DNA of 11,778 nt from positions 1 to 11,778 of the forward strand of contig NZ_JAYKGW010000114.1 in assembly GCF_035285525.1 (NCBI RefSeq), read 5' to 3'. The notes beneath the pieces were generated by a model. That model searched no databases and had not been told where the DNA came from. It was given only the letters and a program-made list of their open reading frames with translations. The number at the start of each line of letters is the position of its first letter. Position 1 is the stretch's first letter. The DNA is from Okeania sp. (lineage in GTDB: Bacteria; Cyanobacteriota; Cyanobacteriia; Cyanobacteriales; Microcoleaceae). Both the position numbers and the translations under genes were made by a program. Positions 136 through 11,778 of this stretch are shown one piece after another.

Positions 136-1341
136 TTGCATTTTAGTCTTCATGTTCCCAATCCCAATGGTGGCAGAATTCGGGTTTCTATGAAGGAAAA
201 CGAAGCATCAGCACCTTGGCAAACTTTAACCACTATCCGCTCTCGCTTAAATGACACTGTTTTACGCAGGGATTCCCTCGAGCTGGTCAGTGGCAATTAT
301 GATACCGACTCACATCCTGCCGCTCACGAACCCAATCAAATTGGTTTTGCCACACAAGGTTTTGAAAACTTCCACTTTGAAGTACCAGATGATTTGCGAG
401 GCAAAACTGCAACACTTCGGTTTGAGTTAGAAGGAAATACCCCCATTTATCTTGATGATGTCTTCTTTCAAAGCGTTCATCTCAAACTAGGAAATCCCAC
501 CTTGACCGATCCTGCAGATGGAGCAAACCAACAAAAAGCGAGATTTGATGTAGCTCAACCCAACAACTATTTGATTGAAAAACCACAGTATGTCTTATCT
601 TACAATAACCGCGAAAGAGGACCAAACTGGGTAAGTTACCAACTGAATAACTCCTGGATTGGTGCGCAAGAACGCAGACAGAACGAAGCGTGGGATAGGG
701 ATTTTCAACTTCTACCACCACTAGAAGGAACTCAAGGACAATGGTACACGGGGACTGGAAGACAAATTCACAGAGGACACATGACTACGAGATCGCACCG
801 AAACAGAAATCTCAAAGATCAGCAATCTACTTTTTACACTAGCAGTATGCTTCCACAGCATGCCCATAATAATTCTGACAGTTTCCAATCGGCGTGGTAT
901 AACCTCGAAGGATATGCCCGAGATCAACTTGTTTTGACCGAGGGGAAAGAACTCTATATTATATCTGGTGGATTTGGTTCGGCACCTTTACCGAATAATC
1001 CACCGATTCCTGCCAATCATCCTCTCAGAGTAAATGGTATCAACTACCCCGAGGCAACTTGGAAAGTCATCGTAGTTCTTGAACCAGGTCAGGGCGTTGC
1101 AGATATTACAGAAGACACGCGAGTTATTGGTGTGATTACGCCCAACAATGCAAGACCAACCGATTTAACGCCAGAGCAATTGGAGGCTTGGCGCAACTGG
1201 GGAGAGTGGCGTTTCAGTGTTGACGATATTGAAAGTGTAACGGGACTAAACCTCTTGTCGAACATTCCCGAAGAAATTCAAGACCAAATTGAAGAAAGGG
1301 TAGACAATGGTCCTACCGAACGAACTGGCGTTGTGTCTTAG
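136..1341 (+). CDS. DNA/RNA non-specific endonuclease (Serratia nuclease/NucA family, beta-beta-alpha-Me) preceded by part of a beta-sandwich; 5'-truncated or frameshifted paralogue of the C-terminal module of the 4913-8119 product
   Basis: 401-aa ORF. HRGH at nt 769-780, then SSMLPQHAHNN and AWYNLE, matches the DRGH / Mg-ligand Asn / Glu pattern of the Serratia-NucA family. The tail ITPNNARPTD...WRNWGEWRFSVDDIESVTGLNLLSNIPEEIQ is typical of the family. The whole ORF aligns with roughly the last 440 aa of the 1068-aa protein, e.g. TATLRFELEGNTPIYLDDVFFQSVHLKLGNPT vs PAKLTFTLEGDSEVFIDNVFFKSAHIKLGNPT, and YVLSYNNRERGPNWVSYQLN vs YTVSYNTQTKTPNWVSWQVN. Start is uncertain (TTG 136 or ATG 190); the frame is closed upstream by TAA 67-69. 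Confidence 0.8.
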   Translation: MHFSLHVPNPNGGRIRVSMKENEASAPWQTLTTIRSRLNDTVLRRDSLELVSGNYDTDSHPAAHEPNQIGFATQGFENFHFEVPDDLRGKTATLRFELEGNTPIYLDDVFFQSVHLKLGNPTLTDPADGANQQKARFDVAQPNNYLIEKPQYVLSYNNRERGPNWVSYQLNNSWIGAQERRQNEAWDRDFQLLPPLEGTQGQWYTGTGRQIHRGHMTTRSHRNRNLKDQQSTFYTSSMLPQHAHNNSDSFQSAWYNLEGYARDQLVLTEGKELYIISGGFGSAPLPNNPPIPANHPLRVNGINYPEATWKVIVVLEPGQGVADITEDTRVIGVITPNNARPTDLTPEQLEAWRNWGEWRFSVDDIESVTGLNLLSNIPEEIQDQIEERVDNGPTERTGVVS

Positions 1342-2892: not shown

Positions 2893-3384
2893 TTACTCCC
2901 ACAGGTAAGGCCCGCGCACGAACTCTCCATCAGGAAAGACTGTTTTGCAAATTAAAGCTCCCCTACCAATGCAACAGTTTTTAGCACCTTTGAGATTGGC
3001 AGCAACTAAGATTGCCCCCTCAAGCTTACATTCGAGAAGCTCGGCTTCTTTTAAGTCCGCACCAGTGAGAATAGCTTCTCTAAGATCGGCGTAACTAAGA
3101 TTAGTATTTGTCAAGTCTGCACCACTTAGATCGGTTTGCTTCAAGTTAGCGTGACTGAGAATTGCTCCCTTAAGGTTATTGCCCAGCATTTTGGCCTGAC
3201 TCAAGTTGGCACGAGTCAGATTTGTCTTTTCAAAACTGTTCGCGCCCATGATATCTGCTTCAGATAAATTTATCTCTGTTATATCTGCTTCGCTCAGATA
3301 CGCAGATAAGTGAATGCTAGTAAAATCCCTTTCCCCTATGGCATATTGTCGAAGCAAATCTTCGGTATTCAGGTTTTTCTTCAT
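2893..3384 (-). CDS. Pentapeptide-repeat protein, single module (163 aa)
   Basis: ATG start with cap EDLLRQYAIGERDF, then pentapeptide units (ANLSQAKMLGNNLKGAILSHANLKQTDLSGADLTNTNLSYADLREAILTGADLKEAEL). Tail NLKGAKNCCIGRGALICKTVFPDGEFVRGPYLWE. A strong Shine-Dalgarno sequence lies upstream. Confidence 0.9.
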   Translation of the reverse strand: MKKNLNTEDLLRQYAIGERDFTSIHLSAYLSEADITEINLSEADIMGANSFEKTNLTRANLSQAKMLGNNLKGAILSHANLKQTDLSGADLTNTNLSYADLREAILTGADLKEAELLECKLEGAILVAANLKGAKNCCIGRGALICKTVFPDGEFVRGPYLWE

Positions 3385-3613: not shown

Positions 3614-3877
3614 TCAATCTGGCAGAATCGTCTTACCCTCAACGACTGCACCACTAAAATCTGCATTACTTAAATTAGCGTTGTCAAAGTTGACTTCTTC
3701 TAAAATAGCCCCGCATAATTGGGCATAACTCAGATTGACTCCCTTAAGAGAAACCTGATGAAACTTAGCACCGCTGAGGTCTGCTCCTTTTGAAAGCACT
3801 ATCAGTGATGCCGTTTAAGGTGGCAAAAAGTACATAGATTTATGATGGTTCTTCCATTGTGGAAGAATCGTCTTGAT
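3614..3877 (-). pseudogene. Decayed pentapeptide-repeat gene remnants (capless 61-aa fragment plus a C-terminal tail remnant)
   Basis: Read in the same frame as the upstream 303-aa PRP, past its TAA: IKTILPQWKNHHKSMYFLPP-stop (3818-3877), which resembles the PRP-303 tail NTILPDGTVKTDPHHAFL. Then TASLIVLSKGADLSGAKFHQVSLKGVNLSYAQLCGAILEEVNFDNANLSNADFSGAVVEGKTILPD-stop (3614-3814). The ORF track starts this piece at GTG 3799. It has no RYxxGERDF cap and no ATG. Confidence 0.6.
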
Positions 3878-4789
3878 TTAATCTCCTAGCTCCCACATTT
3901 TTCTCAGAAAGGCATGATGGGGATCGGTTTTAACAGTTCCATCAGGCAATATCGTATTGTAATATACAACACCTTCATCGCTACCAGTCAAGTTTTCAGC
4001 ATTGGTCATGTCAGTACCAGTAAGATTAGCGCCATCGAAAATAATAGAAGTTAAACGAGCGTTAGTTAAATTCGCATTAGTTAAGTTAGAACCAGACCAT
4101 TTTGTATAGTCTAAATTAGCGCCACTCAAATTGACATCGGTAAAATTGGTATCACTAAAGTCGGCAGATTCTAAATTAGCATTTTCCAGATTCGCATTAC
4201 TCAGGTTGACTTTATCAAAAATAACCCTCTCCAAACTGGCACCGCTTAAGTCAACATTTCGCAAGACTATCCCGTAGAATTTTCTTTCTCCTGCCGCATA
4301 ACGTCTGAGAAACTCTTCAGCAGTCAGAACTCGGTCGGGGTCATTTTCAATCTGGCCATCTGGCATTACAGTATTGCAAAAAAGAGCATCAGTTAAATTA
4401 GCATCAGTCAAATTAGCATCAGTCAAATTAGCACCAGTCAAATTAGCACCAGTCAAATCAACGAACTTCAAAATTGTGTTAGCCAAACTTGCATATATTA
4501 GATTGGCGTAACTCAGATTTGCTCTCTCCAAATTGCTATTTCTGAAATTAGTACCAGTTAAATTCGAGTTAGTTAGAATAGTATTCAGCAGACGACAACC
4601 ATTAAGATTGGTATAACTCAAATTAGCATCAGTCAAGTCAGTACGAGTCAAATGAGCATTACTTAGATCTGCATCGCTAAGATCGATGCTCGTCAGTTCG
4701 GTATCGCTTAGATCGACTGCTTTGAGAACGATTCCGCTAAAGTCTCTTTCTCCATCGTTATATCTTTTCAAAAATTCTTGAAGTTCCAT
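3878..4789 (-). CDS. Pentapeptide-repeat protein, two-module (303 aa)
   Basis: ATG start preceded by AAGGA. Cap QEFLKRYNDGERDF, pentapeptide units, first tail NTVMPDGQIENDP, second cap AEEFLRRYAAGERKF, more units, second tail NTILPDGTVKTDP. Confidence 0.9.
   Translation of the reverse strand: MELQEFLKRYNDGERDFSGIVLKAVDLSDTELTSIDLSDADLSNAHLTRTDLTDANLSYTNLNGCRLLNTILTNSNLTGTNFRNSNLERANLSYANLIYASLANTILKFVDLTGANLTGANLTDANLTDANLTDALFCNTVMPDGQIENDPDRVLTAEEFLRRYAAGERKFYGIVLRNVDLSGASLERVIFDKVNLSNANLENANLESADFSDTNFTDVNLSGANLDYTKWSGSNLTNANLTNARLTSIIFDGANLTGTDMTNAENLTGSDEGVVYYNTILPDGTVKTDPHHAFLRKMWELGD
4386..4460 (-). repeat. Five tandem 15-bp units inside the 303-aa PRP gene
   Basis: GCATCAGTTAAATTA / GCATCAGTCAAATTA / GCATCAGTCAAATTA / GCACCAGTCAAATTA / GCACCAGTCAAATCA, contiguous over 4386-4460, encoding DLTGANLTGANLTDANLTDANLTDA. 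Confidence 0.9.
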
Positions 4790-4912
4790 AAGTTTTTCCT
4801 TGAACGCTACTACAAATTCATTGTAACACGAGCGATGCCATTACTACATCCTGACAGCAAATGAAATGATTTCAGTTCAAATAATTATAAGCGGGAGTCA
4901 TTTCTACCGGAA

Positions 4913-7900
4913 TTGAATATTTCTGAGAAACGGAATTTGCTGACTAGACCTTGGAATGGAATTGGTGATTTTAATCCGAAGCGCATCTTGACCGCAACTT
5001 GGAAGCTAGATACAGTAACGGATACAGGAAAGTGGTATGGCCACGATGGCCAAACTGAAATTTCTCTGCCCACAAGCGGTCTGCCTAACACTAACTCTAG
5101 CTTGACTCTGCCAGAAGAATTGACTTTGACTGCAGGGCAGACTTATCATTGGGCAGTTGAAGTTATCGATCGCAATGGAAATTCGGAGCTTGAGTCTCGC
5201 AGTTTCCAGACCGAAAATTCCGAACATAATCTTGACAATACTTTCAGCAGCGTCAGCGTGGTTACTCATGGCTTTAAATTGCCTACAGAAAGTCCGGGAA
5301 TACCCGATAATATTTACAACTTAGGCAATAATATCGCTGAGTCTGGTGGCGAGGGTTTAATGATGAGGTACAATCGCCAAACAGGTGGTTGGGATGCCAT
5401 TGACAAAGAGGGCCGCCTTTTGTCAGATGTTAAGATTTCTGATTATTACGGTAAACCTTTAGTGTTACTAACTGATTGGTCTTCTGATAACCAATCGTCA
5501 ATTCCTGACTCTGGTTTCAGTGAAGGAGCAGCAGATGCTTTCTTTGCTTCTCTGGTTCAACTCGACCAACAATTAGGAGGAACAGTTGCAAATATTGAGG
5601 GCAAACTGGTCAACAAACATGGTGCTGTTTTTGACTCCCCGTTACATTTTATTGGTTTCAGTCGTGGTGCTGTAGTCAATAGCGAAATGATTCAGAGGAT
5701 TGGAACTCACTTCCCCCATGCTGGAGGACCACTCAACGCGGATGGTACTCCTCAAGTGGATTCTGAAGGTTCCGAAATTCGGGATTTACAAATGACAACT
5801 ATTGACCCCCATGATTTTGAACAGCCTGGGTTTTCTTTCCCAGAATGGATCCCATTCATAGGTGGAGAAGGATTTGGTGATTTCAACGATCCAGAAGTAC
5901 AGGTTTGGGAGAATGTTACCTTTGCAGATAATTACTATCAGACTGTACCGAAGTTAGACCCTAATTTCTTAGAATTGACAGCAACGCCAGCAGGTCGCTT
6001 GATTGAGAATGCAGATTTGAATATCTTTTTGGGTACGAACTCCGCTGAAGAGAATTATGAGAATAGTCGAGCTGGTTTTACTAGGGAAACTGATGGCAAC
6101 TTCTGGCCTATTGCTCCTAGTTTTCCCTGGGAATTTGATAAGAAGTTGCCCCTAGCAGGTCGTGGTGCAGTTCACGGACGGGTGCTTTCTTGGTATGATG
6201 GTACTACTAATTTGTCGGTGACGAAATCCCCAGATGAGTTGTATCGTCGTTTGGGAGATGGACATCACAACCATTTATATGACTCAGATTTTTCGGGGGT
6301 GGCGAATCCTTGGTACACTCCAGACCATAATAAGGCTACTTTTGAGTTAGGGGATAAGAATGCACCGTGGGAAGGTATCGGTACAGGTTGGTTTTATTCA
6401 GTGCTTGGTGGTGGTAAGGATTTGCGGCCGGAGTCGAAGTTGTCGGAGCGGGTGTCTATGAGTTTTGATAATACTAGCGATCGTGAAAGTCAAGGTGATT
6501 TTGCAGTACCGACTTTGTTTAATGGTAATTTTGATGCAGTTTTTAATCCTAATGGTTTACTGCGTAATTCTCTTTCTGATGGGATTCCGGGATGGTCTGG
6601 AAGTAGTCCTTCAAACTCATCGTCTTCTGATAGTGGAAGTAGCGCCAATGTCAATTCATTAGTTGAATGGAGTAACATTGGTTTACCACTACGGTATCGG
6701 CAGGGTGCTGGTTATGATGGAACTACAGCCAACTATGCCTTGAAACTAGATAGTAATTTCCCAAAAATCACTCATAATCCTTTTGTTATACCTGAATGGG
6801 GGAATTTAAGGTTTGATGTTTATGCTCCTAAAGAAAGTGGGAAGTTGAAAGTACAACTGGAAGTTGAAGGGGCTAATATACCAGTCAAGACAATAGATTT
6901 GGCTATAGATGCTGGTACGGTTCAAATAGGAGATAAACAAAAAGTTGATAAAATCAAAGAAATATATGGAGACAATGTTAATAGTATTGGATATAGAAGA
7001 AAGGGCGGATTTGAAACCTTCCAATTTCCCTTTCAAAAACTCTCTAGCGATGAATGGAAGAAATTTATGGGAAAACCAGCTAAATTAACATTTACTTTGG
7101 AAGGAGATTCTGAAGTTTTCATAGACAATGTTTTCTTCAAAAGCGCTCACATTAAGTTAGGAAATCCGACTAATGCACGATGGGATGCGACTCAAGAAAC
7201 ACCAACAAATTTGCTAGTAGAAAAACCAGGTTATACAGTTTCTTATAACACTCAAACCAAAACACCAAACTGGGTAAGTTGGCAGGTTAACAAAACATGG
7301 ACTGTGCCAAAGAAAGCCAGACTGGGTATTGAATTTATAGACGATCCTTTCTTCTCTTTGCAATCATCCCATCCTAATTGGCCAAAAGTAAATGGAACAA
7401 TATTTACGGGCTTAGGGATGGATAGAGGTCATTTAATTCCAGACAGAGACAGAAACAGAAATCCAAAGGATACCATAGAAACTTACATGGGAAGTAATTT
7501 AATTGCACAATCAATGGATAATAATCGACGATTTACAGACATTCCATTGACTGGTTCTGCTTGGTTTAACATCGAAAAAATGATAGGCAATGATGTTGAG
7601 GCTGGAAAAGAGTATTACGTTGTCGCTGGAAGTTTAGGTAATGACTGGAGTTCACAGAAAAAAAGTAATGCACCAGAATTGCTTGAAAAGCTAATAAATC
7701 AGGGAGATACAAATCCTCAAAAATTTAACAATAATATTTCAATTCCTGAATGGACTTGGAAGAACGCGATCGCTTTACCGAAACCGGGTATGGAGGTTAC
7801 ATCAGAAGCAGAGGCATTTGTGTATATTACGCCTAATCATGCAGAACCAACAGACAATGAGTTGCCGATAGAACATCCACTCAATCAATTGTTGGGTGAA

Positions 7901-8119
7901 GAACGTGACCCTATAGAAAGTCGGGATCAATGGAGAAATCCTGAAACTTGGAGGATAGGTCTTCAACAACTTCAAGACCTTCTTAACAGCAGAAAAGACC
8001 CCCAAAATCCTGAGGAAACTGACCCTCGTTTTAACTTCCAGTTTGATTTCCTTTCTCATATTACCGATCAAGAAGTTCGAGGTAAGTTGATGAAAGACGG
8101 AGAATATGTTCCTTTTTAA
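4913..8119 (+). CDS. Large multidomain protein: N-terminal Ig/FN3-like domain, lipase-like alpha/beta-hydrolase, Ser-rich linker, beta-sandwich, C-terminal DNA/RNA non-specific endonuclease (Serratia/NucA family)
   Basis: Longest ORF in the window (1068 aa). Motifs read from the translation: LTAGQTYHWAVEVIDRNGN (beta domain, aa ~25-100); VVTHGF (nt 5264-5275 code THGF) and nucleophile elbow GFSRG (nt 5654-5668) with TTIDPHD and AVHGR as acid/His candidates (alpha/beta-hydrolase, aa ~112-470); GSSPSNSSSSDSGSS linker (~nt 6598-6657); nuclease motifs DRGH (nt 7421-7432), SNLIAQSMDNN and AWFNIE. Start codon is uncertain: TTG at 4913, with no in-frame ATG until about aa 150. No signal-peptide-like N-terminus. 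Confidence 0.85.
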   Translation: MNISEKRNLLTRPWNGIGDFNPKRILTATWKLDTVTDTGKWYGHDGQTEISLPTSGLPNTNSSLTLPEELTLTAGQTYHWAVEVIDRNGNSELESRSFQTENSEHNLDNTFSSVSVVTHGFKLPTESPGIPDNIYNLGNNIAESGGEGLMMRYNRQTGGWDAIDKEGRLLSDVKISDYYGKPLVLLTDWSSDNQSSIPDSGFSEGAADAFFASLVQLDQQLGGTVANIEGKLVNKHGAVFDSPLHFIGFSRGAVVNSEMIQRIGTHFPHAGGPLNADGTPQVDSEGSEIRDLQMTTIDPHDFEQPGFSFPEWIPFIGGEGFGDFNDPEVQVWENVTFADNYYQTVPKLDPNFLELTATPAGRLIENADLNIFLGTNSAEENYENSRAGFTRETDGNFWPIAPSFPWEFDKKLPLAGRGAVHGRVLSWYDGTTNLSVTKSPDELYRRLGDGHHNHLYDSDFSGVANPWYTPDHNKATFELGDKNAPWEGIGTGWFYSVLGGGKDLRPESKLSERVSMSFDNTSDRESQGDFAVPTLFNGNFDAVFNPNGLLRNSLSDGIPGWSGSSPSNSSSSDSGSSANVNSLVEWSNIGLPLRYRQGAGYDGTTANYALKLDSNFPKITHNPFVIPEWGNLRFDVYAPKESGKLKVQLEVEGANIPVKTIDLAIDAGTVQIGDKQKVDKIKEIYGDNVNSIGYRRKGGFETFQFPFQKLSSDEWKKFMGKPAKLTFTLEGDSEVFIDNVFFKSAHIKLGNPTNARWDATQETPTNLLVEKPGYTVSYNTQTKTPNWVSWQVNKTWTVPKKARLGIEFIDDPFFSLQSSHPNWPKVNGTIFTGLGMDRGHLIPDRDRNRNPKDTIETYMGSNLIAQSMDNNRRFTDIPLTGSAWFNIEKMIGNDVEAGKEYYVVAGSLGNDWSSQKKSNAPELLEKLINQGDTNPQKFNNNISIPEWTWKNAIALPKPGMEVTSEAEAFVYITPNHAEPTDNELPIEHPLNQLLGEERDPIESRDQWRNPETWRIGLQQLQDLLNSRKDPQNPEETDPRFNFQFDFLSHITDQEVRGKLMKDGEYVPF

Positions 8120-8351: not shown

Positions 8352-8665
8352 TTAGGACTTACACAGAGACGCTACATATAGCGTCCAAAACTATTGCGTG
8401 GCTTTGTTGCATGAAAGTAGCGTTCTTAGCATCCATTCCGCATTAAGGGATAAATATTAAGTGGGATGGGCATCCTGCCCGTCCGAAAATATGGGCATTC
8501 CTGCCCGGTGTGAAAATATAAGAAACAGCAAACTTGCAGGATGCCTGTTCCACAAAACTATTAAAATCATCCCACATTATTTTTTGTACACCTTCTTCAT
8601 GCAACAAAGCCCTATTGCGCAATAGTTTTTTAACTCTATAAATAGTACCTTTGCGTAAGTCCTAA
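8352..8665. mobile_element. MITE-like non-coding element with nested inverted repeats (unclassified)
   Basis: Outer arms TTAGGACTTACACA (8352-8365) and TGCGTAAGTCCTAA (8652-8665) pair at 13/14 positions. AAAACTATTGCG (8387-8398) pairs with CGCAATAGTTTT (8618-8629). GGCTTTGTTGCATGAA (8400-8415) pairs with TTCATGCAACAAAGCC (8596-8611), 16/16. GTGGGATG (8461-8468) pairs with CATCCCAC (8568-8575). GGCATCCTGC (8469-8478) pairs with GCAGGATGCC (8536-8545). There is no ORF inside. Confidence 0.45.
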
Positions 8666-8674
8666 TTTTATTGT

Positions 8675-9628
8675 TTACAAAAGTTTTTCAATATTTTTAT
8701 TTGCTCTAACAGGATAATTGCTCGAACCTTGTAAAAAGAATCCGTCTTTTAAAGTTATATTGTGGAAGAAAGCTAGAGATTCACCACTGCATCTTAATTC
8801 TGCATCTTGAAAGTTGACTTCAATGAAGTGAGTGCAAGTCGTATCTGCACAGATTGTTGCTTCTCTCATATCAACATAAATAAAGCTAGCACTATTCAAC
8901 TCGCAATCCAGTTTAGCTCCTCTAAAGTCACAATTTATGAATTGGGATCCATTCCAATCCCCACTCAGGGTAGCATTACTCAAATTACAATTGCTAAAGT
9001 GGGCGCAAAACAGATTAACATCCCGTAATTCAGCACCACTGAGGTCAACTCCATGCAAAATCGCCTTTTCAAAGTTTCTTTCCCCTGCTGCATAGCGACT
9101 AAGAAGTTTTTGAGCGTCTAATCCTCTACTAGGATTAATTATTAGCTTCCCATCAGGTCTAGTGCTATAATGAACAATAGGGTCTCTTGGTATTTTGATG
9201 TCAGTTAAATTAGCATTTGTGAGATTACTACCAATAAATTGAGTTTCATCTAAATTAGCTCCACTCAAATTAGCATAACTTAGGTCAGAATTAGTAAAAT
9301 CGGCACAAATGAGATTAGCTCCGCTCAAATTAGCATAACTCAGGTTTGTACCTATGAAATAGGTGTGCCGGAGACTAGCTTTTTTGAGATTAGCTCGACT
9401 GAAATTAGCATTTCCTATATGCCCTTCTATGAATGCGCTTTCGAGACTAGCGCCACTTAAATTGATATCCATCAGGAGGGCATCAAAAAAATAACATTTT
9501 CTTAAATCTATACCCGAAAAATCTCTCTCACCATTTTCATACTGTTCTGAGAAATTATCTTCAATTTGTCTTCTGGAAAAATCTCTCTCAACATTTTCAT
9601 GCTGTTCTAAGAATTTCTCTTGATCCAT
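8675..9628 (-). CDS. Pentapeptide-repeat protein, two-module with duplicated N-terminal cap (317 aa)
   Basis: ATG start. Duplicated cap FLEQHENVERDF / FSEQYENGERDF, then units such as GTNLSYANLSGANLICADFTNSDLSYANLSGANLDETQFIGSNLTNANL. Linker STRPDGKLIINP, second cap AQKLLSRYAAGERNF, then a more divergent Cys-rich second module ending NITLKDGFFLQG. Confidence 0.9.
   Translation of the reverse strand: MDQEKFLEQHENVERDFSRRQIEDNFSEQYENGERDFSGIDLRKCYFFDALLMDINLSGASLESAFIEGHIGNANFSRANLKKASLRHTYFIGTNLSYANLSGANLICADFTNSDLSYANLSGANLDETQFIGSNLTNANLTDIKIPRDPIVHYSTRPDGKLIINPSRGLDAQKLLSRYAAGERNFEKAILHGVDLSGAELRDVNLFCAHFSNCNLSNATLSGDWNGSQFINCDFRGAKLDCELNSASFIYVDMREATICADTTCTHFIEVNFQDAELRCSGESLAFFHNITLKDGFFLQGSSNYPVRANKNIEKLL
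9254..9345 (-). repeat. 60-bp-period duplication (one beta-helix coil) inside the 317-aa PRP gene
   Basis: ATTAGCTCC(A/G)CTCAAATTAGCATAACT(T/C)AGGT occurs at 9254-9285 and 9314-9345, identical at 30 of 32 positions. Both copies encode (N/D)LSYANLSGANL. Confidence 0.85.
9516..9615 (-). repeat. 60-bp-period duplication of the cap-coding segment of the 317-aa PRP gene
   Basis: GAAAAATCTCTCTCA(C/A)CATTTTCAT(A/G)CTGTTCT(G/A)AGAA(A/T)TT occurs at 9516-9555 and 9576-9615. The copies encode FSEQYENGERDFS and FLEQHENVERDFS. Confidence 0.85.
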
Positions 9629-9915: not shown

Positions 9916-10188
9916 CTATTTATTGTTACATCCATCGTTACAAATGCTGCCATCAGGCAAGATCGTATTGCACAAAATAGCACCTCTTAGATCGACTCGT
10001 TTAGGTTGATTATATAGCAATGAGCGCTGGCATCTTTGCATGCTACGAATATCTTCATTTGTAACATAAGCTCCTACTACATGACTGATATTTTTGATGT
10101 GCGATAGCTTCGCTGTGCCTCCGGCAATCGCAACTCGGTCCCCCTGTCGTGAGCCAAATATGTTTTTCTCTGCCAGATATGACATCAC
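9916..10188 (-). pseudogene. Probable remnant of a pentapeptide-repeat gene (only the C-terminal tail is recognisable)
   Basis: The 90-aa ORF ends RVDLRGAILCNTILPDGSICNDGCNNK, matching the TILPDG tail of the neighbouring PRPs. The upstream part has no cap motif, contains only weak units (GAYVTNEDIRS), and is occupied by a copy of a 31-bp dispersed repeat. Confidence 0.4.
10101..10131. repeat. 31-bp direct repeat, copy 1
   Basis: GCGATAGCTTCGCTGTGCCTCCGGCAATCGC, identical to 10196-10226. Similarity continues for 8 more nt with two mismatches (AACTCGGT vs GTCTCGGT). Confidence 0.85.
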
Positions 10189-10195
10189 ACGGTCC

Positions 10196-10226
10196 GCGAT
10201 AGCTTCGCTGTGCCTCCGGCAATCGC
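10196..10226. repeat. 31-bp direct repeat, copy 2
   Basis: GCGATAGCTTCGCTGTGCCTCCGGCAATCGC, identical to 10101-10131, starting 95 bp later. The ends GCGAT...ATCGC are complementary (split HIP1-like halves). Confidence 0.85.
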
Positions 10227-10337
10227 GTCTCGGTTTTACCCCATGCCACCATGTTTACCTCCCAGTCTTATAGACTTGCACCTTGAAATTTAATTCCGAG
10301 GAATTGGTTTAACCACTACGGAAAAACTTGAGGATTT

Positions 10338-11203
10338 TCAATTGACTGCTGCATCAACACAGTCTCTAAAATTGTCAAATTCCTTTATTCTTTGTCTAAT
10401 CCAATTTTTTAATACAAACCACCAACGTTCTATCTTATTAAAATTTGGTGATTAGGGTGGTAAATACCAGATTTGACACCCTTTCTTGGCCACTAATTCT
10501 TCTATATAAATTGATTTATGAAACGTTGCATTATCTAATATGATCACTTGTCTTGGTTGTAATTTTGGTAGTAAACAATTTTCCAACCAGTTTTCAAATA
10601 AGTCACGATTACAACTTCGGTGTAAATGTTAAAGGAGCAAACATTGGGGAATTGATTTATCGCTGCCACCCGTCCTTACTCTCTCAGTTCTTTTTCCTGA
10701 CTTCATACCTGCTACTCTTTTCCCTTTAATTCCATAACCATAAGGATAATCTTCTCGATTATCTATTCCAGTTTCATCTACATAAACAATGTCTTTCTTG
10801 TCTATTTGATGAGTGTTTAAAGATAAATTCTTCTCTTTCTAGTACGTCTCTTTCTTGATAACCATATGTTTTTTTTTACGAGTAAAACCAATTTTTTTTA
10901 AACCTCTACCAATAGTAAAACGACTACAATTTCCCCATTTTCCAGCCATTTGTTTTTGAGTTTGATCGTGATTAGCCTCAACAAATTTTTCAAATTCTTC
11001 CCAATCTTTAATTTTAGATTTTTGAGGAGGAGGTACATTTGCCTTAGAGGCTATTGAGCCTGTGGTTAAATATATATCTCGCCATTGATGAAGAGTAGGC
11101 CGACTTATACTTAATAAACGACTCAGATAACTGATAGACATACCATTAATAATCAGATTAATAGCCCGTCAAATCCCAAATCTTGACTGTAAGGATGTAC
11201 CAT
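10338..11203 (-). mobile_element. Degraded IS630/Tc1-mariner-family transposase gene (pseudogene); element ends not defined
   Basis: Minus-strand reading starts with MVHPYSQDL... from the ATG at 11203-11201, then frameshifts into the 100-aa HTH-like ORF (MSISYLSRLLSISRPTLHQWRDIY...). After the TAG at 10839-10841 the same frame continues: ...DIVYVDETGIDNREDYPYGYGIKGKRVAGMKSGKRTERV...(local frameshifts, TAA 10629-10631)...SCNRDLFENWLENCLLPKLQPRQVIILDNATFHKSIYIEELVAKKGCQIWYLPP-TAA(10452-10454)-SPNFNKIERWWFVLKNWIRQRIKEF...VN-stop (10338-10340). The D (VYVDETG), D (ILDNATFH) and E (NKIERWW) layout is typical of IS630. Confidence 0.8.
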
Positions 11204-11441
11204 AACACTCAAACTTGATTTTAAAGATACTTAAAGTAACTTAAACTATAAAATGTCAATACCTAAAGACCCATTCTTAAAACTTTAGTCTTTGGCGTTG
11301 GCGGAGCCTAGCGGCAGCTATATCGCCTAATTTATCAAAAAAGCAGGCCATACAGTATTAATACTACATGAGACTATTGTTGTAATATGTAAAGATGCCA
11401 GCGATCATTGCTATACTGGCCGCAGCTACCCTGACTCTTTT

Positions 11442-11778
11442 GTGACAGGTTTTACTGTTACCTATGATATTTCTTCTGTGGATGTCATAGCTATCCCACA
11501 AGTAGGATTGCCAGTGGTGACTGAAGTAGGAGTCCAACGAGCCGAAGACGGTTTAGCAACTTTTGAAGCTAACTTGAGTCTCTCAGCACCAGAGTCAGAC
11601 CCCACTCAAGCACCAGTGTTGCAGGGGGCAGAATTGAAGTTTAATGATCAGAATGGAGACCCTTTTCCAGATAACGAACCGGTTTTATTCCTAACTGCTG
11701 ATAACGCTCTCATAGATGATAACGATCTACCAACATCGACAGGCAGTCAGTTGACAGATTTGCAGGTGAAGTTTTATG
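11442..11778 (+). CDS. Hypothetical protein, N-terminal part only (ORF runs off the right edge)
   Basis: The frame is open from 11331 to the window end, about 149 codons, which is long for AT-rich DNA. The earliest canonical start is GTG 11442. Translation: VTGFTVTYDISSVDVIAIPQVGLPVVTEVGVQRAEDGLATFEANLSLSAPESDPTQAPVLQGAELKFNDQNGDPFPDNEPVLFLTADNALIDDNDLPTSTGSQLTDLQVKFY. It is acidic and I recognise no family. It is not in the supplied ORF track, presumably because it has no stop in the window. Confidence 0.4.
   Translation, partial: MTGFTVTYDISSVDVIAIPQVGLPVVTEVGVQRAEDGLATFEANLSLSAPESDPTQAPVLQGAELKFNDQNGDPFPDNEPVLFLTADNALIDDNDLPTSTGSQLTDLQVKFY

Follow-up and report, generated by a model that had tools for sequence, protein, structure and literature searches.

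The window analyzed here is the whole of an 11,778-bp contig (NZ_JAYKGW010000114.1) from Okeania sp., a marine filamentous cyanobacterium, and the subject of this report is the open reading frame (ORF) at positions 4913 to 8119 of its plus strand (hereafter, the target), an orphan member of a family that joins a large scaffold to a C-terminal nuclease. The target translates without interruption into 1068 amino acids (aa), and NCBI lists an identical protein under the name "DNA/RNA non-specific endonuclease [Okeania sp.]." A first-pass annotation, made from the sequence alone, had proposed a two-warhead effector in which a lipase-like alpha/beta-hydrolase and a non-specific nuclease attack membrane lipid and nucleic acid, respectively. 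The comparisons reported here point to a different arrangement, in which the nuclease belongs to an exchangeable cassette, the hydrolase to a conserved scaffold, and a neighboring pentapeptide-repeat protein (PRP) gene would supply the immunity protein.

Domain architecture and 5′ truncation of the target

The motifs that had been picked out by eye are all in place in the uninterrupted frame: VVTHGF at aa 116 to 121, GFSRG at aa 248 to 252 (S250 codon, positions 5660 to 5662), DRGH at aa 837 to 840 (H840 codon, 7430 to 7432), DNN at aa 869 to 871, and NIE at aa 886 to 888. The N-terminal 109 residues (4913 to 5239) are the C-terminal part of an incomplete Ig/FN3-like domain, recognized from weak Ig matches in Pfam and from tblastn. 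A lipase-like alpha/beta-hydrolase follows at aa 110 to 515 (5240 to 6457), with the H119-G oxyanion motif, the G-F-S250-R-G elbow, and D298 and H421 as candidate acid and base. Junction motif J1 (aa 518 to 562; 6464 to 6598; FDNT...RGDFAVPTLFNGNFDA...IPGWS), the most conserved stretch of the family, overlaps the start of a carbohydrate-binding module (CBM)-like jelly-roll beta-sandwich (aa 535 to 745; 6515 to 7147), which holds a Ser-rich loop and a second junction motif, J2 (ITHNPFVIPEWGNLRFD, approximately aa 622 to 645). The remaining residues, aa 745 to 1068 (7145 to 8116), make up a NucA-type beta-beta-alpha-metal nuclease with D837-R-G-H840, N871, and E888. This domain runs to the C terminus (FDFLSHITDQEV...), and the target therefore has no separate C-terminal signal segment.

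The nuclease, which had been called complete from its motifs, matched Pfam Endonuclease_NS (PF01223) with an E value of 3e-22 and Anabaena NucA (PDB 1zm8/2o3b) with an E value of 3e-21, and a profile of the family matched NucA 1zm8/2o3b over residues 4 to 239 of 241 (E = 3e-62). H840, N871, and E888 of the target, respectively the catalytic His, the Mg-ligand Asn, and the conserved Glu of this Mg-dependent type of nuclease, align to H124, N155, and E163 of NucA. The beta-sandwich was likewise borne out. An AlphaFold2 (AF2) model of aa 515 to 750, with a predicted local distance difference test (pLDDT) score of 82, formed a CBM-like jelly roll, and Foldseek matched it to CBM61, CBM28, CBM17, and CBM4, to the receptor-binding domains of iota toxin and CDTb, and to a gingipain adhesin domain. 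The Ser-rich stretch at aa 564 to 577, previously described as a low-complexity linker, is not an interdomain linker but a loop within this CBM-like domain, directly after the conserved IPGWS.

For the middle region, no lipase or esterase match was found in Pfam, NCBIfam, single-sequence PDB, or family-profile PDB searches, and it was the structural comparison that upheld the lipase-like reading. An AF2 model of aa 96 to 570 was built with 70 homologs (pLDDT, 78; predicted template modeling [pTM] score, 0.86), and the top 50 PDB matches that Foldseek found for it were solely alpha/beta-hydrolase lipases, esterases, and cutinases, including DUF915 surface hydrolases, pancreatic and lipoprotein lipases, CALB, Geobacillus lipases, Legionella lpg2422, and Tle1. 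The possibility that this region has some other fold, which the first-pass annotation had allowed for, found no support in this comparison. In the model, S250 occupies the nucleophile elbow between a strand (aa 244 to 249) and a helix (aa 251 to 266), H119-G lies behind the first core strand at the position of the oxyanion-hole HG motif, and D298 lies behind strand beta6, where pancreatic lipases place the acid. These three predicted topological placements (S250, H119-G, and D298/H421) fit an active lipase.

Conservation across 98 aligned hydrolase domains adds to this picture. T-H-G-F together with G-F-S-R-G was found in 75 of them, the target among them; the other 23 carry T-R-G-x-E together with G-F-G-Q-G, in which the Ser and the HG His are replaced jointly (by Gly and Arg, respectively). 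Such a joint loss is what would be expected if a real active site had been inactivated in one subfamily. The remaining candidate triad residues are conserved throughout, D298 in 98/98 domains and H421 in 97/98. The alignment shows a hydrolase domain apparently retained for more than catalysis, and its role seems to be accessory or in entry, with activity predicted in the subfamily of the target, rather than that of a second toxin of equal standing.

A further set of residues between aa 245 and 428 of the target, encoded at approximately 5645 to 6196 of the window (H245, E258, Q261, R262, D291, T295, D298, DNYYQ339-343, H421, and W427-Y428) is kept in at least 96/98 domains, even in the Ser-less subfamily. 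Such near-invariance suggests a second conserved site, one that binds a metal or a ligand, for which an esterase reading does not account.

Judged from its alignment to relatives, the target is a 5′-truncated orphan copy that lacks the 600 to 900+ N-terminal residues of its family. An in-frame stop codon at positions 4862 to 4864 is followed by approximately 30 nt of family homology (4883 to 4912) ahead of the TTG at 4913, and this segment of the plus strand (4862 to 4912), delimited by tblastn, marks the truncation breakpoint. In tblastn searches with five full-length relatives, family homology opened at nt 4883 to 4898, upstream of the TTG and right behind the in-frame stop, and no homology was found in any frame upstream of 4883. 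A frameshift behind the ORF, or an artefactual fusion of two genes, which the first-pass annotation had kept in view, was rejected on the basis of these searches. The upstream neighbor is a divergent PRP gene starting at 4789. Most relatives match residue 1 of the target at their residues ∼600 to 790, and one relative of ≥2010 aa matches it at residue 911; what relatives have as the opening strands of the Ig-like domain (EVNLFVSTF...) is missing from the target. In 80 related loci, nuclease ORFs have their N termini at all positions between −2600 and +868 on the numbering of the target; truncated copies are thus a property of the family.

Truncation accounts for the lack of an export signal and for the TTG start. 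The hydrophilic N terminus without a visible export signal or trafficking domain, as first described, agrees with our scans of the target, in which no N-terminal hydrophobic segment, transmembrane helix, RTX GGxGxD motif, or PEP-CTERM motif was found. The missing signal does not point to an unusual delivery route; it is explained by the loss of the 5′ end. The earlier statement that only TTG codons could serve as starts before about aa 150 holds for the six in-frame TTGs that precede the first ATG (aa 150) but passes over a GTG at aa 116. The truncated copy has not decayed, since the ratio of nonsynonymous to synonymous substitution rates (dN/dS) between the target and P0002 is 0.2 to 0.27 and every family-invariant residue and both catalytic motif sets are intact (P0002, P0003, and so on are working labels for relatives of the target, and L001, L006, and so on are working labels for related loci).

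Conserved scaffold and exchangeable C-terminal cassettes

More than 190 homologs of the target were found, most of them 1400 to 1860 aa long; full-length family members reach 1700 to 3600 aa and, in Nostocales, >6000 aa. Scanning one genome per species yielded 205 relatives, nearly all in filamentous cyanobacteria, with members in the genera Microcoleus, Tychonema, Okeania, Lyngbya, Phormidium, Oscillatoria, and Kamptonema and in the Nostocales genera Tolypothrix, Calothrix, Nostoc, and Rivularia. Some members are plasmid-borne, and many genomes hold several copies. The hydrolase domain by itself forms ∼500 clusters at 50% identity. One family member (L051; JBCCOE010000155.1) lies on a contig that was binned as Bacteroidota, more probably through misbinning than because the family truly occurs outside the cyanobacteria.

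The scaffold of the family consists of Ig/cadherin/DUF4114 repeats, a lactonase/YncE-like beta-propeller, an Ig/FN3-like domain, and the lipase-like alpha/beta-hydrolase, and long members also contain Big_2, Big_9, cadherin-like, He_PIG, DUF4114, and PKD domains. Cysteine is nearly avoided, with none in the 1068 aa of the target and 44 in 156,518 family residues (120 homologs); the adjacent PRPs contain ∼2% Cys. From the scarcity of cysteine and the extracellular domain types, we infer that the family is exported or located at the cell surface.

The scaffold and the C-terminal end of these proteins have separate histories of similarity. Over aa 1 to 550, the target is 70 to 96% identical to P0002, P0003, P0004, and L006, and past approximately aa 550 the identity drops to 24 to 44%. 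Compared with Microcoleus P0005, the hydrolase of the target is 41% identical (front part, 36 to 60%) and its nuclease 65% (up to 84%), while L006, which has the hydrolase closest to that of the target (73%), has the most distant nuclease (24.5%). Among 45 non-redundant genes, hydrolase similarity and nuclease similarity were uncorrelated (Spearman coefficient, 0.004), and 14 types could be distinguished among the nucleases, whose median identity is 33%, compared with a median of 46% for the hydrolase. Near-orthologous Tychonema and Microcoleus genes are 85 to 100% identical for approximately 1300 residues and then only 15 to 45% identical directly past ITHNRFVVPEWGNLRFDLHVP. The identity breakpoint of the target itself lies at J1 (RGDFAVPTLFNGNFDA...IPGWS, aa 528 to 562), and a 401-aa orphan in the window starts exactly at J2, the pattern of which is ITHN.FV.PEWG.LRFD. 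Other C termini can take the place of the nuclease: ART-PolyVal in P0002, Peptidase_M10 in P0205, and several of unknown type. Finally, 5′-truncated cassettes are kept together with a partner gene, twice in the window (136 to 1341 and 4913 to 8119) and likewise in L001, L002, L003, L010, and L036. A search for DNA repeats between cassettes returned only a PRP-internal 15-nt periodicity and two inverted-repeat pairs, with no common intergenic recombination site.

By these patterns of identity, the hydrolase is part of the conserved scaffold, and the CBM-like domain and nuclease form a cassette that is exchanged between paralogues and strains at the junction motifs. The notion of two equivalent warheads is poorly supported in this light, since the hydrolase sits in the part that is not swapped and about a quarter of the members have lost its Ser and HG His.

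Two further observations concern the junction and the alternative ends. P0002 (L001, 6171 to 11464), the closest relative of the target over aa 1 to 550, ends in ART-PolyVal and has no nuclease; a same-strand, Cys-containing ORF of 71 aa lies directly behind it, and the next PRP lies further downstream, beside nuclease fragments. The 71-aa ORF may encode a different immunity protein. Elsewhere, the gene is divided into two ORFs exactly at the hydrolase/CBM junction (L007, 8816 to 12862; L057, 1 to 3810; L038, 7901 to 12990; L053; and L060), by an in-frame stop in L007 and L057 and with a 4-nt overlap in L038. Such a split may be a scar of recombination, or the two polypeptides may be a genuine variant.

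Pentapeptide-repeat partner genes and other features of the window

Convergent to the target, on the minus strand at 8675 to 9628, lies a gene for an acidic two-module PRP of 317 aa (pI 5.0), the candidate cognate inhibitor or immunity protein of the target nuclease. The minus strand of the window has four genes of appreciable size, all of which encode PRPs, and several of these are tandem two-module fusions. Three matched PF00805, the profile of tandem A(D/N)LXX repeats, with E values of 7e-37 to 5e-77 and the fourth, a 163-aa PRP (2893 to 3384), with an E value of 1.7e-30; their PDB matches were Np275/276, All3740, Qnr, and MfpA. They have in common an N-cap, Y..GER.F, and a C-terminal end, T.[ILMF][PE]DG. 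The PRPs of related loci, which were blank in the precomputed annotation, carry the N-cap M..EELLRRYAAGERDF.G.DL and the end NTIMPDGS.RNDNC. As a group, the PRPs are acidic: their pI has a median of 4.6, and they carry a net charge of −5.7 per 100 aa.

The association between PRP and nuclease genes extends across the family. A PRP gene lies ≤1.5 kb downstream of 73/83 nuclease ORFs, convergent in 68 cases, compared with 1/82 background windows taken >5 kb from any family ORF; downstream of a non-nuclease C terminus, a PRP was found within 1.5 kb in 2/7 cases. The nuclease ORFs that lack an adjacent PRP are mostly giant Nostocales proteins. In statistics that ignore shared ancestry, the type of the PRP agrees with that of the nuclease (adjusted Rand index, 0.50; permutation P = 1e-4), does so within a single hydrolase cluster (adjusted Rand index, 0.40), and retains a partial correlation with nuclease similarity given hydrolase similarity (0.30; P = 0.001). 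Individual loci give the same picture. The PRP beside P0005 is the one most similar to the window PRP at 8675 to 9628, and the P0005 nuclease is likewise the most similar to that of the target. Tychonema loci L013 and L018 are collinear, with 92 to 96% DNA identity, save for one block (L013, 11677 to 13611) that holds the 3′ end of the gene and the PRP, which were replaced together; L017 keeps an extra L013-type PRP next to its own. A dedicated inhibitor of the NuiA type was also sought, and no Pfam match to NuiA was found among the 9 of 23 window ORFs of ≥60 aa that were scanned, which included all of those flanking both nuclease genes. Taken together, the gene comparisons suggest that the window PRPs convergent to nuclease cassettes may be DNA-mimic nuclease inhibitors.

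The spacer between the target and its PRP measures 555 bp, compared with a typical 30 to 250 bp. A 39-nt inverted-repeat pair (8352 to 8390 and 8627 to 8665) encloses ∼236 nt between the target stop codon and the PRP, and this pair may mark the insertion of a miniature inverted-repeat transposable element (MITE).

The window holds further pieces of the family. At 136 to 1341 on the plus strand is a second orphan cassette, the 401-aa ORF that begins at J2 (LRFDLHVP, here LHFSLHVP). It comprises a partial CBM and an intact NucA-type nuclease with HRGH, HNN, and NLE motifs and is ∼30% identical to the target cassette. Three PRP genes come after it, convergent to it on the minus strand (1511 to 2806, 2893 to 3384, and 3878 to 4789), along with a PRP remnant at 3614 to 3799; a second PRP remnant lies at 9916 to 10188 on the same strand. 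At the far end, the N-terminal part of a third family copy (11430 to 11777, plus strand; 92% identity to P0002 aa 74 to 189) runs off the contig, its first ∼73 codons replaced by an IS630-like element. Flanking this element, 51-nt inverted repeats at 10013 to 10063 and 11365 to 11415 (76% complementary) enclose a 100-aa fragment of an IS630-type helix-turn-helix transposase (10839 to 11141, minus strand), and the decayed IS or MITE so delimited (10013 to 11415) adjoins the start of the third-copy homology (11430, aa 74 of P0002). A 39-nt direct repeat occurs at 10101 to 10139 and 10196 to 10234. Searches of the window for tRNAs and Rfam families gave no match.

Proposed function, alternatives, and known systems

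We put the probability at roughly 0.6 that ORF 4913 to 8119 belongs, as an orphan cassette, to a polymorphic nuclease-toxin system whose immunity protein is a PRP acting as a DNA mimic. In such a system, the full-length protein would be exported or displayed at the surface, the CBM-like module would bind a surface glycan, the esterase/lipase would assist at the envelope, and the nuclease would kill non-kin cells. In the producer and its kin, a cytoplasmic PRP, a beta-helix with the shape and charge of DNA, would fill the DNA groove of the nuclease as cognate immunity. The window copy would be a stored cassette that can recombine into a full-length gene, such as the one whose start lies at 11430, and this role is more likely for it than that of an effector delivered on its own. 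A more far-reaching proposal, which we advance tentatively and at somewhat below even odds, is that the PRP subfamily with the EELLRRYAAGERDF N-cap and the NTIMPDGS end provides type-specific DNA-mimic immunity against NucA-type toxins and that the scaffold represents a new polymorphic toxin delivery family, specific to cyanobacteria and exported independently of a signal peptide, with which filamentous, mat-forming species would discriminate kin or compete.

Several observations weigh against the polymorphic-toxin interpretation. A hydropathy scan of 120 homologs, including full-length gene calls, revealed no convincing Sec signal, and no trafficking domain of the RHS, FHA, PAAR, LXG, or RTX type was found in the target or its long relatives, the true N termini of the latter being uncertain. 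Cadherin/PKD domains follow the nuclease in P0064 and P0107, an order atypical for C-terminal toxins. The PRP gene is convergent to the nuclease gene and not co-transcribed with it, which is unusual for immunity genes, and the agreement between PRP and nuclease types leaves shared ancestry out of account. A promoter and terminator scan gave site counts not above shuffled expectation and no site in 4790 to 4912. For the hydrolase, the Foldseek E values (1.5e-5 to 1e-2) and TM-scores (low, at 0.2 to 0.45) are modest because the domain has large insertions.

The first-pass annotation had left the choice between an antagonistic toxin and a scavenging enzyme undecided, and of the two the cassette and partner-gene comparisons favor the toxin, because the nuclease cassette is hypervariable and recombining, orphan copies are kept, ART and M10 C termini occur in its place, and the neighboring gene covaries with it. 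As a scavenger, the protein would be an extracellular or surface-anchored enzyme acting on extracellular DNA or RNA, esters, or lipids in mats, with the PRP as an intracellular safety inhibitor only, like NuiA. Such a role would suit the closest solved relative, NucA, a secreted scavenging nuclease with a dedicated inhibitor, as well as the CBM-like and Ig-like domains typical of extracellular enzymes, the cysteine-free composition of the family, and the relatives in which further domains follow the nuclease. A housekeeping exoenzyme would not, however, be expected to have 14 nuclease types (median identity, ∼33%) that recombine independently of a scaffold conserved at 46 to 96%, and the joint replacement of nuclease and PRP at syntenic loci, the retention of extra PRPs, the arrays of 5′-truncated cassettes, and the ART or M10 domains in place of the nuclease also speak against scavenging, which we regard as unlikely.

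Slightly less likely again is that the target is a dead fragment left by rearrangement in an IS-rich region, without present function even as a reservoir for recombination. It lacks 600 to 900+ N-terminal residues and the first Ig-like strands, its 5′ end offers TTG as the only start (GTG at aa 116, ATG at aa 150) with no promoter-like site upstream, and the neighborhood contains IS630-like and MITE-like elements as well as remnants of PRP genes. Yet 1068 codons have stayed open, with the family-invariant residues and both sets of catalytic motifs intact and a dN/dS of ∼0.2 against P0002; the partner PRP is intact as well, and the same type of truncated copy recurs in many genomes. A model of anti-phage defense was also tried and was rejected, as neither the target, nor the second nuclease, nor the PRPs matched anything in PADLOC. 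That result bears equally on a related idea, an intracellular effector of suicide, defense, or programmed cell death in a multicellular cyanobacterium, in which the PRP would hold the nuclease until infection or damage released it. The absence of a signal peptide, the enrichment of NucA-centered conflict systems in multicellular bacteria (PMC7159879), and a STAND/WD40 gene near one homolog are in keeping with such an effector. The extracellular domain types (CBM, Ig, cadherin, PKD, and DUF4114) and the scarcity of Cys argue for export, however, and no linked peptidase, NTPase, or EAD module was found in the window, so that we consider the idea very improbable.

Cyanobacteria encode a great many PRPs, few of which have an assigned role. 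The main interest of the locus lies in the pairing of a PRP with a nuclease and in the cyanobacteria-specific scaffold. On the polymorphic-toxin interpretation, one class of PRPs would gain a concrete function, the inhibition of a nuclease by DNA mimicry; filamentous cyanobacteria would join the organisms with polymorphic toxin/immunity systems that swap cassettes and keep orphan modules; and the system would bear on the coexistence and competition of strains in Microcoleus, Tychonema, and Okeania mats and blooms. There is also a point for annotation: a large hydrolase-nuclease without a signal, which NCBI calls an ordinary endonuclease gene, is here a by-product of 5′ truncation. The literature search returned no paper on PRP-NucA pairing or on this cyanobacterial family, and the scaffold and the candidate PRP type of immunity appear neither in the survey of Zhang et al. 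(2012) nor in a 2021 PRP review, which mentions no link to nucleases.

Among characterized systems, NucA/NuiA of Anabaena sp. PCC 7120 (1zm8, 2o3b) is the closest in the nuclease itself, with the same family and the same DRGH His, DNN Asn, and NLE/NIE Glu, and it too is cyanobacterial, with a dedicated gene for a protein inhibitor (here a candidate). NucA, however, is a single domain of ∼270 aa with a Sec signal, whereas the nuclease described here ends a multidomain protein of 1000 to 3600 aa, is hypervariable and recombining, and has a PRP rather than NuiA as its partner. The architecture resembles that of the Rhs, CdiA, and LXG polymorphic toxins with Tox-NucA domains (PMC3482391), which likewise have a conserved N-terminal or central part and a variable C-terminal nuclease, junction motifs, orphan cassettes with a partner gene, and alternative toxin domains at one position. 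Unlike them, the present family has no known trafficking module, and the swapped unit includes a CBM-like domain. Imm36, SUKH, and NTF2 are the immunity families of Tox-NucA, and cyanobacteria are outside its phyletic list (Zhang et al., 2012; PMC3482391); the partner here is instead a convergent PRP.

The hydrolase resembles the pancreatic lipase family, the DUF915 hydrolases (3lp5 and 3ds8), and the type VI secretion lipase Tle1 in its fold (by Foldseek), its HG motif, and its GxSxG elbow, and it resembles pancreatic lipase in the candidate acid after strand beta6. It differs from these lipases in having no profile match in Pfam, NCBIfam, or the PDB, in its large insertions, in the joint loss of the Ser and HG His in ∼23% of the family, and in belonging to the conserved scaffold and not to the variable toxin position. 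For the PRPs, the natural comparison is with the DNA mimics MfpA, Qnr, and AlbG/McbG. The neighboring genes encode bona fide PRPs, and their acidity is what one would predict for DNA mimics that shield a cell against a DNA-directed toxin. Those proteins protect DNA gyrase, however, and not a nuclease target; established PRPs act on gyrase as DNA mimics (PMC8145042, PMC7980463). The only precedent found for the pairing is a passing remark on YjbI-like PRP genes beside GH-E nuclease toxins of unknown immunity (PMC5714182). Colicin E DNases and their Im proteins have unrelated folds and another gene organization, and colicins are plasmid-borne and depend on lysis for release, but they share several features with the present system: a C-terminal nuclease comes after a receptor-binding module (here a putative one), an acidic inhibitor (here a candidate) co-evolves tightly with it, and the nucleases have diversified into specificity types.

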